Source of the DNA: Clostridiales bacterium
Lineage (GTDB): Bacteria; Bacillota; Clostridia; Saccharofermentanales; UBA5734
Direction of reading: 5' to 3'
Length of the DNA: 32,357 nt
NCBI GenBank assembly: GCA_003532195.1
Contig: DOFA01000171.1
Location: forward strand, 1-32,357
Below the pieces are notes generated by a model. That model was given only the letters and a program-made list of their open reading frames with translations. It searched no databases and had not been told where the DNA came from. This document shows, piece after piece, positions 6,864 to 14,398 of this stretch; position 1 is the first letter of the stretch, and the number at the start of each line of letters is the position of its first letter. Position numbers and translations under genes: made by a program.

Positions 6864-9800
6864 ATGGTTTCGAGGGAATACTGCAGTGAGGTGTTGACGT
6901 TGTTTAACGATACAATCGACTATGGGCTGACCTATCCTCAAAAAAGCATCTGGTATCTGGAAAAATTAAATCCGGGAACCGGCATCGGCAATATTGCCGC
7001 CACGTTGAAGGTCGATGAGGACCTTGATTACGATCTGGCTAATCAGAGCATCAACCTGATGATTCGCCGCAACGACGCTTTCCGGATGCGTTTTCGTGAA
7101 AAGGGCGCCGAGGTCAGGCAGTATCTGGCGCCATACCGGGAATATCGCATGGAACGTTATGATTTCAGCGGCGACAGCCGGGAGAACTTGTATTCCTGGG
7201 ATCAGGAGCAGACAAAGGTTCCTTTCCGTTTGCTGGATTCAGATCTGTTTTATTTCGCTTATGTTGTCAGCAGCGCGAATTCCTGCGGCATTTATGTGCG
7301 TATCCATCATTTGATAACCGATGCCTGGTCCTTGGTGCAGATCGCCAACGAATTCATCAGCGGCTACTATTCCCTGAAAAACGGCCAGCCGCTGCCGGAA
7401 GAGAAAAACCCCTCTTATCTGGAATATATTGATAATGAGCAGAAATATTTACAGTCTGAACAGTTCGCCCGCGACAAAGCCTACTGGCAGGGTGTTTATG
7501 CCGATGTTCCGGAACTGACAACCCTGAAGAGCCTGTCAACCAGCCGGCTGGGCCTCAAAGCCAAGCGAAGGAGTTTCATTCTCCCGGACAAGCTGACCGC
7601 CAAAATCAAAGAACACTGCCGGGAAAACCGCACATCGTTATTTGCCCTGTATTTCGCGGCTTTATGCATCTATATCAACCGGATCAAAGGTGTCGAGGAT
7701 ATCACCATCGGCACCCCGGTGCTCAACCGGACCAATGCCCGGGAGAAAAAGACAATCGGCATGTTTATCAGCACGGTTCCCCTGCGGATCAAGATCGATG
7801 GCGAGCTCAGCTATGTCGAGTTTTCCCGCAAGGTCGACAAGGAATGGTTTTCTGTGCTCAAGCATCAGAAATACCCCTATGACTGCCTGATCCGGGATGT
7901 CCGGGAGCAGAACAAAGGTGTGGATAAACTTTTCGACCTGGCTTTTTCCTACCAGAATGCCAAGATCGTTAAAAATATGCGAGAAGCCCACCAGGAAGCC
8001 CGCTGGCATTTTAACGAGTGCCAGGTCGAATCGCTGTATATTCATCTCAATGAGCGCGAAGACGACGGCAAGATTCTCCTCAATTATGATTTCTTAACCG
8101 ACGCCTATTTTGTCCGGGAAATCGAGTTCATCCACGACCATATCATCCGGCTGCTCTGGCACGCCCTGGATAATCCGACACGCCAGTTGTCGTCCCTGCA
8201 GATGATTTCAGAAAGCGAACGGGAAAAAATATTAGTTTCTTTCAATAACACGCAGGCGGACTATCCCCTCGATGCGACTGTCGGCGAACTGTTCGCGCGG
8301 CAGGCTGCCCGCAGCCCCGAGGCGCCGGCTGTCACTCTGGGCGACCGGACCTTAAGTTATGGCGAGCTGAACGCCAAAGCCAACATTCTGGCCCGGTTTT
8401 TGCGCGGCAGGGGAGTGGGCCCGGAAAAAATAGTCGCGCTGCTGCTGCCGAGAGTCCCGGAAATGATCGTCGCCATCCTCGGAACCATCAAAGCCGGGGG
8501 CGCCTATCTGCCGATCGATCCGGAATATCCGGCTGACCGGATCAGCTACATGCTCGACAACAGCCAGGCCGGAATCCTGCTGACCTGCGGCGATCGGCCA
8601 GCCGGCATGGTTTTCTCCGGCGAGACCGCCGATATCTGCCAGCTGCTCGCTCAGGCCTGGACCGCCGAAGATCGGGCGAACCTGCCCGGACTGAATCGTC
8701 CGGGTGATTTGCTCTATGTTATATATACATCTGGATCAACCGGAAAACCTAAAGGCGCGATGATCGAACACCGCAATGTCGTCCGGCTCTTATTCAATGA
8801 TAAGTTCCAGTTCGATTTTGGTCCGGATGACTGTTGGACCCTGTTCCATTCCTTCTGCTTCGACTTTTCAGTCTGGGAAATGTATGGCGCTCTGCTCAAG
8901 GGCGGCCGGCTGGTGATCGTCCCGCGAGCAGTTGCCCAGGACACGCAGCGCTTCCTCGATCTTCTGATCCAGGAGAAAGTCACAGTATTGAACCAAACCC
9001 CAGCGGCGTTCTACAATCTGGCTGATGCTGACAGCAGGATGGCTGACCGGCGCCTTTGCCTGCGCACGGTCATTTTCGGCGGCGAAGCCTTGAAGCCGGT
9101 TCTCCTCAAGCCGTTCCGCGAAAGGTACGCGGACACCAAACTGATCAACATGTATGGGATAACCGAAACAACCGTCCATGTGACCTATCTGGATCTTAGC
9201 GAAGACGATATTGAAAAGAATATCTGCAATGTCGGACGGCCGATTCCGACCAACCGGGTATACATCCTGGACAAGCATCTTAATCCGCTGCCAATCGGGA
9301 TCCCTGGTGAAATCTGCGTTGGTGGCGCCGGCGTCGGCCGGGGCTACTTGAATAATCCGGAGCTGACAGCTGAAAAATTTGTGCCCGATCCATTCCGCCC
9401 CGGGGAGATTCTCTATCGTTCCGGCGATCTGGGCCGTTATTTTGCCCAAGGCGACATCGAATACCTCGGCCGGATCGATAATCAGGTCAAAATCCGCGGC
9501 CACCGCATCGAGCTGGGCGAGATCGAGTCCTTGATGCTGCGGTTTGGCAAAATCAGACAGGCGGTGGTTCTGACCCGCGACCTGCCGAACGGCGGCAAGC
9601 AATTGTGTGCGTATTATGTACCGCGAGCCCCGTTCGATCCGGACGACCTTAGGGAATACCTGTCCGGCAAGCTGCCGGAATATATGATCCCGTCTTGCTT
9701 CATCAACATCGAGCAGATCCCGCTGAGCAGCAACGGCAAGGTCGACCGCAGAAAGCTGCCGGATCCGGATGAAAAAGCCCTGGCCCGGAAGGAATACCTG

Positions 9801-12823: not shown

Positions 12824-14398
12824 ATGAGAAAAAAGCAACCAAGAAGCGCATCAGAATATAGAATCATTGTTGTTGATGATGAAATTGGCATTATTGATTC
12901 CCTGGCGGTTGTCCTGCAGCGAAGCGGCTATGATTTTACCGGCGAAACCAACCCGGTTCAGGCCATTGAGCGCATCCGTCACGAACATTTCGACCTGCTG
13001 ATCCTGGATTATCTGATGCAACCGCTGCATGGCGATGAAGTTGTTGCCCAGATCAGGAAATTCAACCAGGAGCTCTATATCTTGCTTCTGACCGGACACC
13101 GGGATCTCGCGCCGCCGCTGGAAACCATCCGTGCCCTGGATATCCAGGGTTACTGCGAGAAAAGCGACAAATTCGACCAGCTGATCCTGTTGGTCGAATC
13201 CGGGATCAAATCGATTTCTTTATTGAAAACGATTAAAAAATTTCAGGAAGGTCTGAACAAAATCCTCCAGGCGGTTCCTAAAATCTACCAGCTGCAGCCG
13301 CTGGGCAGCATTCTGGAAGATATCCTGTCCGAGATCATGCCTCTGGTTAACAGCGAGAATGCTTTTATTTTAGTCGATGATGTGACCGGCATCAACGCCG
13401 ACCGCAAAAGCATCTTTAAAGGCATTGGCAAATACCGGACCGAAATCGGCGAATTTGTGGAAATGCTCAGCCCGGAATTGATGGAACATATCGGATATTC
13501 GCGTATGAACAAGGAAATGGTCCGCTTCGAAGAGGGTGCGATCCTGCCTCTAAATAACGAGCTTTTACAGTGCATCGGGGTCATCTTCGTCGAAAGCCTC
13601 GACTTTGGCAGCGATCAGCTGGACCAAGGGATCAAGCTACTGGAGATTTATGCCAGCCAGGCAGCTTCATCTCTGAGCAATGCCTTTCTCCATTCCATGG
13701 TGAACATGAAGAATGAGGAATTGAATAAAACCTATGACCAGCTGCGCATCCGTTACATGGATACAATCGAAGCTTTGCGCCTGGTCGTCGACGCGAAAGA
13801 TATTTATACCCGAGGCCATTCCGACCGGGTTTCCTATTACGCCGTCAAGATCGGCAAAGCCCTCGACCTTCCGGAAAACGATCTGGAGCTGCTACGCATC
13901 AGCGGCGTCTTCCACGATGTCGGCAAGATTGGCACCGCAGACGATATCCTCTCCAAATCCGATCGCCTGAAGGCGGAAGAATTCGAAGAGATCAAGAAAC
14001 ACCCAATGAAGGGCGCCCAGATCCTGTCGGCGATTTCCATGTTCAAAGGGGTGGTGCCCATTGTCCAGTGCCACCATGAGCGCATCGATGGCAAAGGCTA
14101 CCCCCAGGGCCTTCTGGGTCCGCAGATCCCGCTGCTGTCGCGGATTATATCCGTGGTCGACGCTTTCGACGCCATGACCTCGGATCGCCAGTACCGGCCG
14201 CGCATGGATCTGGATACAGCCAGGAACCAGCTGCGCCTGGGCCGGGACACCCAGTTCGACGGCCGGATCGTCGATATTTTCCTGGCGATTCTGGATGACT
14301 ACAATCTCCTGCTCGGTGAAATGCGCCGACTGCATATCGGAGTCGATTGTTTCAACGAACCTATCCAGCGAACCGGATCAGCTGAAAGGATCATATAA
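12824..14398 (+). CDS. Response regulator with REC, GAF-like and HD-GYP (c-di-GMP phosphodiesterase) domains
   Basis: REC: IIVVDDE, DLLILDYLM (Asp codon 13007) and LLLTGH. The central region is GAF-like. HD-GYP: RGHSDRV, FHDVGKIG and HHERIDGKGYPQGL. GGGAG lies 6 nt upstream of ATG 12824, while the ORF opens at ATG 12788 with no SD. Confidence 0.9.
   Translation: MRKKQPRSASEYRIIVVDDEIGIIDSLAVVLQRSGYDFTGETNPVQAIERIRHEHFDLLILDYLMQPLHGDEVVAQIRKFNQELYILLLTGHRDLAPPLETIRALDIQGYCEKSDKFDQLILLVESGIKSISLLKTIKKFQEGLNKILQAVPKIYQLQPLGSILEDILSEIMPLVNSENAFILVDDVTGINADRKSIFKGIGKYRTEIGEFVEMLSPELMEHIGYSRMNKEMVRFEEGAILPLNNELLQCIGVIFVESLDFGSDQLDQGIKLLEIYASQAASSLSNAFLHSMVNMKNEELNKTYDQLRIRYMDTIEALRLVVDAKDIYTRGHSDRVSYYAVKIGKALDLPENDLELLRISGVFHDVGKIGTADDILSKSDRLKAEEFEEIKKHPMKGAQILSAISMFKGVVPIVQCHHERIDGKGYPQGLLGPQIPLLSRIISVVDAFDAMTSDRQYRPRMDLDTARNQLRLGRDTQFDGRIVDIFLAILDDYNLLLGEMRRLHIGVDCFNEPIQRTGSAERII

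Follow-up and report, generated by a model that had tools for sequence, protein, structure and literature searches.

The Rpf/DSF system of Xanthomonas consists of the synthase RpfF, the sensor kinase RpfC and the REC-HD-GYP regulator RpfG, with a small lipophilic signal and c-di-GMP hydrolysis as its output. In agrBDCA, cqsA/cqsS, luxM/luxN and lqsA/lqsS, the signal-synthesis gene adjoins that of a kinase whose sensor has 6–9 TM helices and minimal loops. Signals derived from nonribosomal peptide synthetases (NRPSs) that act, or have been proposed to act, in an autoregulatory manner include PVF (PvfC), valdiazen (HamD), leudiazen (MgoA), the aureusimines (AusA) and surfactin. Surfactin is detected through the membrane kinase KinC; receptors for such signals are mostly unknown, and the claim of aureusimine signalling was withdrawn. 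To our knowledge, none of these signals has its own receptor kinase encoded in the operon of its synthase or acts through an HD-GYP output, and the NRPS ObiF has no link to a two-component system.

The locus described here lies in a 32,357-nt stretch of Clostridiales DNA, the whole of which is referred to as the window. In order, and all on the + strand, it encodes a C-A(Thr)-T-TE(Cys) NRPS (6864–10787), a HisKA_7TM/PAS kinase (10803–12656) and a REC-DUF3369-HD-GYP regulator that ends at 14398. A preliminary description interpreted these genes as a circuit for making and sensing an NRPS product and knew of no described precedent, which is overstated: RpfF-RpfC-RpfG is a synthase/polytopic kinase/REC-HD-GYP circuit, and NRPS-derived signals exist. 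Rpf/DSF is the closest functional analogue, with a synthase gene clustered with those of a polytopic kinase and a receiver-HD-GYP protein without DNA binding. It differs in that RpfF belongs to the crotonase family and, unlike an NRPS, produces a cis-2-unsaturated fatty acid, the hybrid kinase RpfC combines five TM helices with REC and HPt domains, RpfG lacks DUF3369 and the system is proteobacterial; neither its synthase nor its sensor domain has a sequence-family relationship to that of the present cassette. The agr, cqs, lux and lqs systems differ in output (DNA-binding regulators or phosphorelays rather than c-di-GMP hydrolysis), in signal (ribosomal thiolactone peptides, hydroxyketones and acyl-homoserine lactones) and in the families of their sensor domains. 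No description of the cassette itself was found in the searchable literature.

ObiF (ObiF1), the obafluorin NRPS, has the order C-A-T-TE and a Cys thioesterase that forms an N-acyl-α-amino-β-lactone (PMC6668435). The NRPS of the window resembles it in module order, in having a β-hydroxy amino acid substrate and in its A-T-TE region, which matches ObiF1 with an E-value of 3e-192. The window's NRPS has no MbtH-like domain and neither an aryl carrier protein nor an aryl-adenylating enzyme nearby; its predicted substrate is plain Thr, whereas that of ObiF1 is β-OH-p-nitro-homoPhe, and the window contains no resistant ThrRS gene. Gut Clostridia are the source of a dipeptide-aldehyde/pyrazinone NRPS family (Guo et al. 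2017 Cell; ruminopeptin, Schneider & Balskus 2018; both cited in PMC12327764 and PMC8210680), to which related loci are likened by C-A-T-C-A-T-R architecture and gut habitat and not by cluster identity. The kinase subfamily of these C-A-T-C-A-T-R loci is that of the window, and both have an HD-GYP regulator; in contrast to the gut family, the window has a single-module NRPS with a Cys-TE instead of a reductase, and belongs to an environmental MAG. The regulator is identical in domain architecture to 'RpfY' (REC-DUF3369-HD-GYP, with a GAF-like DUF3369), and the HD-GYP domains of such proteins hydrolyse c-di-GMP in isolation (Galperin & Chou, bioRxiv 10.1101/2021.11.05.467447). That survey links the studied members, from Desulfovibrio, to neither an NRPS nor a HisKA_7TM kinase, and the term NRPS is absent from it.

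Features of the locus and the predicted product

The following features are discussed below.
6597–6863, + strand: intergenic region from the divergent S8 subtilase gene to the NRPS gene, where the operon promoter presumably lies (promoter scan, Rfam)
6864–10787, + strand: single-module NRPS, C-A-T-TE, 1307 aa (Pfam; PDB matches LgrA and ObiF1; motifs HHLITD, GGDSL and GHCVG)
6921–8234, + strand: N-terminal condensation domain, HHxxxD intact (HHLITD, aa 148; Pfam Condensation, 4e-90)
8292–9740, + strand: adenylation domain, code DFWNIGMVHK, the canonical threonine code (manual mapping to GrsA 235–517)
9825–10004, + strand: thiolation (carrier) domain, GGDSL at aa 1011 (Pfam PP-binding, 6.8e-12)
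10080–10742, + strand: ObiF1-like thioesterase, cysteine nucleophile Cys1147 in GHCVG (PDB match, triad alignment)
10788–10802, + strand: NRPS-kinase spacer of 15 nt with an SD-like sequence (sequence, terminator scan, folding)
10803–12656, + strand: sensor histidine kinase, 617 aa, with 7TM sensor, PAS-like segment, DHp (His382) and HATPase (Pfam, alignments)
10842–11501, + strand: HisKA_7TM membrane sensor domain (Pfam, 3.2e-30; AlphaFold2; conserved residues)
12657–12823, + strand: AT-rich kinase-regulator spacer with an extended −10-like TGGTATAAT (12728–12736) and a second TATAAT (12691–12696)
12824–14398, + strand: response regulator with the 'RpfY' architecture, REC-DUF3369(GAF-like)-HD-GYP, predicted to be a c-di-GMP phosphodiesterase (Pfam)

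The start of the NRPS is ambiguous between ATG 6864 and an in-frame TTG at 6900 preceded by GAGGTG; its Pfam matches also include AMP-binding (3.5e-94) and Thioesterase. Among the PDB matches of the condensation domain are C domains of the elongation type as well as starter ones (RzmA, CDA-C1, SrfA-A), so that its subtype, and hence N-acylation of the product, is not fixed by sequence. No acyl ligase or carrier-protein gene was found within the window. A second extraction of the adenylation code was identical to the manual one over the first nine residues, and the nearest relatives share those nine. The thioesterase has ObiF1 (6n8e) as its top PDB match at 6.6e-24, with the next thioesterase at 1e-12, and its Cys, His (RHYF) and Asp (GDKDF) line up with the catalytic triad of this β-lactone-forming enzyme; code and triad together sustain the threonine-derived product and Cys-TE class first proposed. 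From established enzymology we infer that the NRPS would condense L-threonine with an acyl donor that is probably a fatty acyl thioester, and that the ObiF-like Cys thioesterase would release an N-acyl-threonine β-lactone or, on hydrolysis, N-acyl-threonine.

The NRPS stop codon (TGA 10785–10787) is separated from the kinase ATG (10803) by the spacer GGTGAGAAGAGGTTC, which contains the SD-like GAGAAGAGG (10791–10799). The terminator scan found no terminator-like site on the + strand at this junction, and RNA folding of 10745–10845 gave −25.7 kcal/mol with z = −0.32 relative to shuffled sequences, indicating that there is no unusual hairpin, as the preliminary description had stated. Its proposal that NRPS and kinase share a transcript fits the tight or overlapping junction conserved in 75 related loci (median gap 1 nt, IQR −9 to 21, at most 50 nt in 66/75). 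The region upstream of the NRPS holds a single weak σ70-like match (6671–6700). Rfam searches of the window and of six sister loci detected no family, the c-di-GMP riboswitch included, so no autoinduction loop is seen there and riboswitch feedback on the NRPS is not supported. An HtrA-like serine protease gene occupies the same relative position as the upstream subtilase gene in 13 gut-clade loci, and in three loci the gene immediately preceding the NRPS encodes a GGDEF or EAL protein.

The kinase scores 106 bits against HisKA_7TM (cut-off 28.6) and also matches HATPase_c; its PAS and HisKA matches are weak and fall under their cut-offs, and its H-box, N-box and G-boxes are invariant in homologue alignments. 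Sensor helices are predicted at residues 10–28, 35–62, 69–95, 102–119, 144–172, 177–197 and 207–226, and an AlphaFold2 model of residues 1–249 contains seven long helices (pLDDT 88.7). The seven membrane helices initially described are therefore retained, but the near absence of extracytoplasmic loops is not, as residues 120–143 form a single sizeable predicted loop that holds the best-conserved motif, TNxxHHLFY. Foldseek searches with the sensor model returned weak GPCR-like matches only (E at least 7e-3, TM about 0.5–0.6). The most conserved 7TM residues are invariant or nearly so among kinases picked by kinase similarity alone and 47–65% identical to that of the window, so any site that they form would be common to the whole family. 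A putative ligand site there would read a shared feature or be a signalling core.

The regulator matches Response_reg, DUF3369 and HD_5/HD, and Asp74, HD376, HHE429 and GYP437 (numbering of the 536-aa ORF from 12788) are present, so that all HD-GYP catalytic motifs are kept and the original REC, GAF-like and HD-GYP assignment is correct. Its start is most likely ATG 12824 (MRKK...), which homologues and the ENA gene call favour over the rejected start at 12788, and the kinase-regulator spacer is accordingly 167 nt. The extended −10 is present, and TGATATAAT occupies a comparable position in locus L003; the separate regulator promoter that had been proposed is a candidate only, because the kinase and regulator genes abut or overlap, with no spacer, in most related loci. 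Pfam identified no DNA-binding domain in the regulator, so the system is no direct on-switch for the NRPS gene and no classical pathway-specific transcription switch. A role for the NRPS as input to the two-component system is more plausible than one as its target.

Conservation of the trio and co-variation of its parts

Eighty loci were gathered by kinase catalytic-core motifs alone, and the 79 with at least 300 nt of upstream sequence were scored for an NRPS. A same-strand NRPS ends directly upstream of the kinase in 77 of these 79 Clostridia loci, gut species included (75 by domain matches, together with L044 by its reductase tail and L027 by its domain X tail). A REC/HD-GYP gene follows within 600 nt downstream of the kinase in 62/80 loci and on the same strand within 8 kb in 8 more; in the 18 loci with no REC match within 600 nt on the kinase strand, the regulator is displaced or undetected in the fetched stretch. 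All-against-all gene clustering recovered the kinase in 74 loci, the NRPS in 74 and the regulator in 69, and since the next commonest family reaches only 20, these are the sole families common across loci. There is no conserved exporter, carrier-protein or resistance gene near the cassette among the loci surveyed.

In the reverse test, metagenome loci were anchored on the NRPS. The kinase lies downstream in 8/8 with a first C-domain identity of at least 42% (L082–L089; in L085 seen by catalytic-core match only), and the regulator is present too in seven of them. Six loci anchored on two-module reductase NRPSs likewise bear the kinase, and none was found beside generic multimodular NRPSs (C-domain identity 18–27%). 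The trio thus stays together in relatives whether sought from the kinase or from the NRPS, and homologues are not mostly found apart. Synteny conserved in both directions indicates that the three genes are a functional unit, and adjacency in 77/79 independent loci is far beyond chance.

The cassette is retained while the NRPS varies from one to three modules and has many adenylation codes. Its release end may be a Cys-TE, a reductase, a 390-aa domain without assignment or no release domain, and in each of the 21 complete loci whose thioesterase has the xHC[VA]G motif, the code of the last module is for Thr or Ser. The C-A-T-C-A-T-R architecture occurs in 38 of 80 complete classified loci (window included), and most of those in the main gut-clade groups belong to Clostridia of the human or animal gut.

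In the gut clade (n = 22), divergence of the 7TM domain follows that of the adenylation code of the last module when catalytic-domain divergence is controlled (partial rho 0.375 for the last module alone and 0.35 for the combined code, neither reached in 1000 permutations), and the converse, for the catalytic domain with the 7TM domain controlled, gives rho 0.06 (211/1000 permutations). Here the cassette is like agr, in which the hypervariable region comprises the signal genes and the sensor half of AgrC only: its 7TM domain co-varies with the 3' half of the NRPS and its catalytic half does not. Co-variation weakens as the coding sequence compared lies farther from that of the 7TM domain (R domain 0.40, A2 0.25, C2 0.19, A1 0.18) and drops to rho 0.15 (36/1000 permutations) once R-domain divergence is controlled, so much of it derives from physical linkage or shared recombination history. 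It is from gene order that we infer that the kinase may sense the NRPS product.

Proposed circuit and alternative explanations

We consider it somewhat more probable than its alternatives combined that the trio is a synthase/receptor/c-di-GMP phosphodiesterase circuit, Rpf/DSF-like with an NRPS as synthase, for quorum sensing or self-monitoring. Of the circuit as originally interpreted, the functional unit, the product class and the HD-GYP motifs stand; the claimed absence of precedent was too strong, and the link to the subtilase is not supported, as an S8 gene occurs in 0/80 related loci. The small lipophilic product would need no dedicated exporter and would enter or cross the membrane, where the 7TM domain of the co-expressed kinase would detect it, probably at the conserved polar residues N121, H124, H149 and Y154, which cluster close to the predicted outer face. 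The kinase would then alter phosphorylation of the regulator REC domain, gating the HD-GYP phosphodiesterase and shifting the level of c-di-GMP, which in Clostridia controls motility versus attachment.

A possible but distinctly less probable explanation is that the genes are co-expressed yet independent. The kinase would respond to a different cue from the membrane or the surroundings (such as lipid state, a lipophile from host or diet, or a signal from another organism), and the NRPS product would be an electrophilic inhibitor of serine or cysteine hydrolases directed against competitors or the host, which the operon merely times with a drop in c-di-GMP. This would account for conserved 7TM residues that are nearly invariant although the linked NRPS products are predicted to differ widely. 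It also agrees with β-lactones and aldehydes both being hydrolase warheads and with a secreted serine protease gene directly upstream, S8 in the window and HtrA-like in the 13 gut-clade loci; the sister NRPS architecture is that of gut dipeptide aldehydes reported, in PMC8210680 and PMC12327764, to inhibit host proteases. Independence leaves unexplained, however, why in 77/79 loci the NRPS is translationally coupled to a kinase of this single subfamily rather than to any other type of regulator, and why the sensor half, and not the catalytic half, shares its history with the NRPS 3' end.

It is improbable that the kinase is a self-protection or damage monitor, reading envelope or membrane stress or covalent damage from the cell's own electrophile and lowering c-di-GMP adaptively with no cell-cell communication. 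Reactive products are predicted in nearly all variants (by Cys-TE β-lactone or reductase aldehyde logic), a conserved resistance or export gene is absent, and co-translation would put the sensor wherever the product arises; but a c-di-GMP phosphodiesterase is an odd detoxification output, and the gene clustering shows no conserved stress-response genes nearby. Such a monitor overlaps with the make-and-sense circuit, because the NRPS product is still the input.

Slightly more doubtful again is regulation of the NRPS by the two-component system, whereby an external cue would act through c-di-GMP and a c-di-GMP effector on NRPS expression or activity. Biosynthetic clusters often hold regulators, and the three loci with GGDEF or EAL genes upstream are in keeping with this; against it, the regulator lacks a DNA-binding domain and, like the kinase, is encoded after the NRPS in the same operon, neither a c-di-GMP riboswitch nor another Rfam family occurs in the window or six sister loci, and a c-di-GMP-binding transcription factor is not among the conserved neighbours. 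Adjacency by chance or by history alone has a negligible probability, being effectively refuted by 77/79 loci over many Clostridia families, by the clustering and reverse test, and by a trio that outlasts repeated swaps of NRPS modules, release domains and the regulator middle domain while the flanking genes all differ.

Together, the three genes form a single signalling cassette, conserved over many Clostridia families while the NRPS chemistry changes. This cassette suggests an unstudied make-and-sense circuit akin to known quorum-sensing systems.

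Gene order and conservation of the cassette

The window is the entire 32,357-bp contig of the metagenome-assembled 'Clostridiales bacterium', and the same stretch is also covered by a 12-kb ENA contig. An ORF map together with Pfam placed the NRPS, the histidine kinase and the response regulator (the cassette) and the genes on either side as follows:

5229–6596, minus strand: S8 subtilase
6864–10787, plus strand: NRPS with C, A, T and TE domains
10803–12656, plus strand: histidine kinase with HisKA_7TM, a PAS-like segment, HisKA and HATPase_c (NCBI tag DD640_06030)
12824 (most likely start)–14398, plus strand: response regulator with Response_reg, DUF3369 and HD_5/HD
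14378–16123, minus strand: MsbA-like ABC exporter, convergent

The PAS-like segment is named from Pfam matches under the cut-offs. The NRPS stop codon (TGA, 10785–10787) and the kinase ATG (10803) are separated by 15 nt containing GAGAAGAGG; the junction has no terminator-like site on the plus strand, and its folding is no stronger than that of shuffles (z = -0.32), in agreement with the preliminary description, which had reported this spacing without a hairpin. The regulator start was assigned to ATG 12824 because of the ENA gene call and an MRKK-like N-terminus common to four homologues. The AT-rich spacer between the kinase and regulator genes (12657–12823) holds TGGTATAAT at 12728–12736, and in the related locus L003 TGATATAAT is found at a comparable place in the spacer (about 11873–11978), each element lying about 70–90 nt 5' of the regulator ATG. 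Since the two genes abut or overlap in most related loci, an internal promoter for the regulator is possible as a specific feature of the window lineage.

Several other features of the window were recorded. The ABC exporter gene and the 3' end of the regulator gene share 21 nt (14378–14398). A D-Ala-D-Ala-ligase-like ATP-grasp gene (2496–3527) is followed after 2 nt by a lysine-2,3-aminomutase-like radical SAM gene (3530–4660), possibly a pair for beta-amino-acid ligation, and L003 has a Ddl-like match (33%) upstream of its NRPS. A second S8 subtilase gene, with a fervidolysin-type prodomain and a Big_5 domain, occupies 5–1705 and runs off the contig end, and a fused GT4 glycosyltransferase/acyltransferase gene lies at 20580–22316.

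Conservation of the gene order was assessed from both ends of the cassette. For the kinase anchor, patterns derived from only the catalytic core of a 30-kinase alignment were used to scan one genome per GTDB species, and the best 80 of at least 576 relatives were retrieved with 10-kb flanks. Among these best 80, an NRPS ORF ends within 500 nt upstream of the kinase and on the same strand in 75 of the 79 loci that have at least 300 nt of upstream sequence, and the truncated upstream ORFs of two more are NRPS C-termini (a reductase domain in L044, a domain X in L027), bringing the total to 77/79. The first of the two exceptions, L033, is rearranged (3–11788), with the order NRPS, a second kinase containing HAMP, REC-DUF3369-HD-GYP regulator and then 7TM kinase. 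In the second, L069, a 543-aa protein without a Pfam match (3854–5485) takes the place of the NRPS ahead of the kinase/regulator pair; this protein might be an alternative signal synthase. In the retrieved loci the NRPS stop and the projected kinase start lie a median of 1 nt apart (IQR -9 to 21), and 66 of 75 gaps do not exceed 50 nt. An ORF in L007 that appeared to fuse NRPS and kinase (6284–11236) proved to be an artefact of the kinase frame, which stays open for about 3 kb across the NRPS gene; the NRPS is read in a separate frame and ends at its own stop codon, the projected gap being -7. A receiver domain is encoded within 600 nt downstream of the kinase in 62 of the best 80 loci, 47 times with DUF3369; in 8 more it is farther off, up to 8 kb away on the kinase strand, and in L079 it is on the opposite strand. 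When the 817 ORFs of this sample were clustered all-against-all, the kinase (74 loci), the NRPS (74) and the regulator (69) were the only broadly shared families, the next being Tex (20), ABC-F (16), HtrA (16), acyl-AMP ligase (13) and PPTase (6).

The NRPS-anchored sample, a metagenome scan with the window NRPS, gave 79 loci. Where the first C domain shares 42% identity or more with that of the window (L082–L089), the kinase is downstream in 8/8 and the regulator too in 7/8; L085 matches the catalytic core of the kinase but neither the 7TM domain nor the regulator. Two truncated loci follow this pattern, L091 with both kinase and regulator and L113 with the kinase, and the kinase is also present in six C-A-T-C-A-T-R loci whose C domain is 31–33% identical. 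The remaining NRPS-anchored loci encode large multimodular proteins with a C-domain identity of 18–27%, resemble the window mainly in the Thr A domain and lack the kinase. The preliminary description had allowed that homologues of these genes might usually occur apart, which would speak against its proposal of a circuit; with either anchor they stay together. Chance adjacency of the three genes is excluded.

The kinase-anchored loci carry the labels Oscillospiraceae, Christensenellaceae, Mageeibacillus, Hungateiclostridiaceae, Anaerovoracaceae and Peptococcaceae, together with many gut 'Clostridium sp.' or 'Clostridia bacterium' entries, and no well-characterised isolate is a member among the loci studied. 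One contig, L076 (JBLNCA010000025.1), is labelled as a Burkholderiales MAG; its cassette is of the typical Clostridia type and the contig is probably mis-binned. No description of an NRPS/HisKA_7TM/HD-GYP association was found in the searchable literature, the coverage of which excludes Guo et al. 2017 and Schneider & Balskus 2018.

A link between the upstream subtilase and the circuit, suggested in the preliminary description, found no support in the relatives. Neither S8 protein of the window had a tblastn match in the best 80 related loci, and a 57-locus census of the immediate upstream neighbour of the NRPS recorded an S8 gene in the window only. In 13 of the 57, all from the gut clade, this position is held by a divergent gene for an HtrA-like Trypsin_2-PDZ serine protease (e.g. 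L046:1305–2426). Two unrelated secreted serine proteases, the window S8 (5229–6596) and the gut-clade HtrA-like protein, thus take the same relative position; as the 13 HtrA loci form one clade, they amount with the window to two observations, not fourteen. The arrangement could be a coincidence or could reflect a link between protease and inhibitor-like product.

Synthetase chemistry and its variation

The C domain of the window NRPS (Pfam Condensation, 4e-90) has an intact HHxxxD motif (HHLITD at aa 148), and its PDB matches comprise elongation as well as starter C domains. The A domain (AMP-binding, 3.5e-94) contains both A8 (GRIDNQVKI) and A10 with its lysine (PLSSNGKVDR), and mapping onto GrsA positions 235–517 yields the canonical code for threonine, DFWNIGMVHK. 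The carrier domain (PP-binding, 6.8e-12) bears the phosphopantetheine serine in LGGDSL (aa 1011). The nucleophile of the thioesterase is a cysteine, Cys1147 in GHCVG, that aligns with GHCAG of ObiF1, the obafluorin NRPS in which lactone formation needs the TE cysteine (PMC6668435). Against the PDB, the A-T-TE region matches ObiF1 at 3e-192, and the TE alone at 6.6e-24 with the next thioesterase at 1e-12. In the sequence alignment, to which this pairing is confined, the window Cys, the Asp of GDKDF, the His of RHYF and the Gly of LGG pair with ObiF1 positions; RifR-like triad geometry is defined by an Asp on strand 6 and a Gly on strand 5, plus the His. Because of the threonine code and the ObiF1-like Cys thioesterase, the product is predicted from established enzymology to be an N-acyl-L-threonine beta-lactone. 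A local source of the acyl donor was sought, and the window contains neither a carrier protein nor an acyl ligase for this role. Acyl-AMP ligase and PPTase genes occur in 13 and 6 sister-locus neighbourhoods, respectively, and directly upstream of the NRPS in 6 and 6.

Among the related loci the kinase is constant and the NRPS changes, taking these forms:

C-A-T-TE, thioesterase motif [GSAT]HC[VA]G
C-A-T-TE with GWCIG, likewise a cysteine
C-A-T-R (NAD_binding_4)
C-A-T-X, X being about 390 aa without a Pfam match
C-A-T alone
C-A-T-C-A-T-TE
C-A-T-C-A-T-R (about 2470 aa), 38 of the 80 complete loci classified (window included), mostly gut clades

Every thioesterase among the related loci has the cysteine. 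All 21 complete loci with an ObiF-like xHC[VA]G thioesterase have a last-module code for Thr or Ser; this fits beta-lactone formation of the ObiF type, for which the last carrier domain has to hold a beta-hydroxy-alpha-amino acid. Domain X follows the carrier domain in L024 (8701–10011), L030 (8601–9953) and L027 (2–1138) with 43–61% mutual identity, and may be an undescribed NRPS release domain. The two-module reductase loci match in architecture and habitat the gut dipeptide-aldehyde/pyrazinone synthetases (Guo et al. 2017) and ruminopeptin, as these are outlined in PMC12327764 and PMC8210680. A protein search with a gut kinase found relatives to be highly prevalent in gut metagenomes and returned no named isolate linking to the published rup cluster.

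The 7TM kinase and the HD-GYP regulator

The N-terminal membrane region of the window kinase scores 106.1 bits with HisKA_7TM (PF16927; cut-off 28.6), the match spanning profile positions 3–224 of 224. Modelled with AlphaFold2 from a 119-sequence alignment, residues 1–249 fold into seven long helices (pLDDT 88.7). Both the positive-inside rule and the cytoplasmic location of the PAS and kinase domains predict that the N-terminus is outside, which would place the sole sizeable loop (120–143) outside as well. The seven membrane helices of the preliminary description are therefore retained, whereas its near absence of extracytoplasmic loops has to be modified for this predicted one. The most conserved polar residues (T120, N121, H124, H149, S153 and Y154) lie in loop 120–143 and in the predicted outer half of TM5, and a second conserved motif, KNAGFFSRQS (170–179), is in a predicted cytoplasmic loop. 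Foldseek against the PDB returned weak generic 7TM/GPCR matches and one to AdipoR1, with E of at least 7e-3, and thus gives no grounds for homology or for a hydrolase-like site in the 7TM domain. The papers found to mention HisKA_7TM describe no ligand for it. The catalytic portion (HATPase_c, 1.6e-21) has the phospho-acceptor His in IAH382NLKTP, an N-box (NLIINSI) and the G1 and G2 boxes (DHGRGI and GTGLGL), which are invariant or nearly so in the 30- and 119-homologue sets.

In the regulator, the reported order of receiver, GAF-like and HD-GYP domains was upheld. Numbered on the 536-aa ORF from 12788, the receiver domain (Response_reg, 2.1e-15) has its acidic pocket and phospho-acceptor Asp, with DD30-31, D74, T102 and K125 located by motif; the central domain is DUF3369 (PF11849; 3.9e-28; 99 bits, cut-off 27.2); and the HD-GYP domain (HD_5, 2.6e-32) has FHD376VGK and CHHERIDGKGYP (429–439), with the HD, HHE and GYP motifs complete. 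Some HD-GYP proteins are inactive or act on other cyclic dinucleotides. The window regulator has each element of the RpfY-type architecture, namely REC, a central DUF3369 and a full HD-GYP domain. For this type, defined by Galperin and Chou, isolated HD-GYP domains hydrolyse c-di-GMP (bioRxiv 10.1101/2021.11.05.467447), and the window protein is predicted to be a c-di-GMP phosphodiesterase. No DNA-binding domain was found in it by Pfam. The gut-clade regulator is a shorter REC-HD-GYP protein. In NCBIfam none of the three cassette proteins reached a curated family cut-off, the matches being generic adenylation-domain and HDIG domain models.

A candidate signalling circuit and its rivals

The preliminary description proposed that the NRPS product is sensed by the adjacent kinase, with c-di-GMP turnover as the output. 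Judged by gene order and by comparison with Rpf, agr, Cqs and LuxN, the product would be the input of the kinase, and the kinase and regulator would in turn control c-di-GMP hydrolysis. If sensor and signal are matched, they may be expected to vary together, and the pairwise divergence of the 7TM, PAS and catalytic regions of the kinase was compared with that of the A-domain code. After regression on the catalytic domain, 7TM and code divergence are correlated over all loci (rho 0.14, reached in 0/500 permutations) and in the deduplicated gut clade (n = 22; rho 0.35, 0/1000), whereas the catalytic domain regressed on the 7TM region shows no correlation with the code (rho 0.06, 211/1000). The PAS region is intermediate. 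The last module (rho 0.375), not the first (rho 0.07), accounts for the signal, and the 7TM residual correlates less with NRPS segments the greater their physical distance (R 0.40, A2 0.25, C2 0.19, A1 0.18). With the R domain controlled, the effect falls to 0.15 (36/1000). Because of this decay with distance and of the R-domain control, after which the effect is largely gone, the co-variation is not proof of ligand-receptor co-evolution and we take it as suggestive only. It can safely be concluded that the sensor half of the kinase has a history in common with the NRPS gene in its 3' half, and that the catalytic half of the kinase lacks this history. The same pattern is known from the agr hypervariable region, and such sharing is suggestive of matched signal/receptor pairs, from which it is expected.

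For an autoinducer-receptor circuit, in which a signal accumulating outside cells would be bound by its receptor and alter the output, the evidence is indirect: the conserved adjacency of synthase and receptor and a sensor-specific co-variation that is partly due to linkage. In the main rival the kinase responds to another cue, and the operon serves only to couple an electrophilic effector to a drop in c-di-GMP; this reading is favoured by the best-conserved 7TM residues, which are invariant or nearly so although widely differing products are predicted for the linked NRPSs, but it sits poorly with the exclusive and tight linkage of NRPS and kinase. Ranked second is that the kinase is a monitor of self-damage. 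A cluster-situated regulator switching on biosynthesis does not fit, because the regulator has no DNA-binding domain and the NRPS gene precedes both of the others in what is presumably a single operon. The third rival, feedback control of the NRPS by c-di-GMP, gained nothing from the search for a c-di-GMP riboswitch, since Rfam at gathering thresholds matched no family in the window or in six sister loci (130 kb) and, relaxed to E of up to 1 over window 5000–15000, gave one irrelevant chance match only. In the 57-locus upstream census, GGDEF genes (2 loci) and an EAL gene (1 locus) are found directly upstream of the NRPS, and in L004, L010, L013 and L034 extra HD-GYP proteins are encoded downstream of the cassette.

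In the autoinducer reading, the ABC exporter at 14378–16123 was considered as a route for the product and rejected, as it is not conserved, with only scattered matches at the level of the ATPase domain in the related loci. The lack of a conserved exporter suits a membrane-permeant lipophilic signal. BlaR1 is a sensor of beta-lactams, and by analogy the conserved Asn, His, Ser and Tyr of the 7TM domain might serve in covalent sensing.

The cassette resembles the Rpf/DSF circuit in that a REC-HD-GYP regulator gene lies beside synthase and sensor genes. The synthase of Rpf/DSF is the crotonase-family RpfF, whereas the cassette has an NRPS and no crotonase-family domain in the window ORFs scanned; its sensor RpfC is a hybrid (TM input, HisKA, HATPase, REC, HPt), whereas the cassette kinase joins 7TM and PAS-like segments to a plain transmitter without REC or HPt. 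As two of the three defining components, synthase type and sensor type, differ, the cassette is not a member of Rpf/DSF and is, by analogy, functionally similar to it. It would represent synthase-sensor signalling with an HD-GYP output.

Our tentative reading, which we hold to be possible rather than probable, is that many Clostridia, including abundant gut species, use small electrophilic NRPS products as self-signals, each of which is read by a matched GPCR-like 7TM kinase of the same operon and leads to c-di-GMP hydrolysis. The signals would then be N-acyl-Thr/Ser beta-lactones, N-acyl amino aldehydes and dipeptide aldehydes so far seen as inhibitors of host proteases. To our knowledge, small-molecule quorum sensing in Firmicutes comprises almost only ribosomal peptides and AI-2, and we know of few inputs to c-di-GMP control in Clostridia; the physiological role of gut NRPS aldehydes is debated. 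The cassette joins four open issues with one concrete hypothesis for each: it offers a candidate ligand to the orphan HisKA_7TM receptors, a candidate native function to a prevalent microbiome metabolite family and a candidate density or self-signal input to c-di-GMP. Since it is compact at three genes, has a product predictable from sequence and exists in many variants, receptor-ligand pairs are testable even though most carriers are uncultured. If true, the reading would define a new and widespread class of quorum sensing in Gram-positive anaerobes, in which specificity groups would arise, as in agr, when the NRPS 3' half is exchanged together with the sensor half of the kinase.
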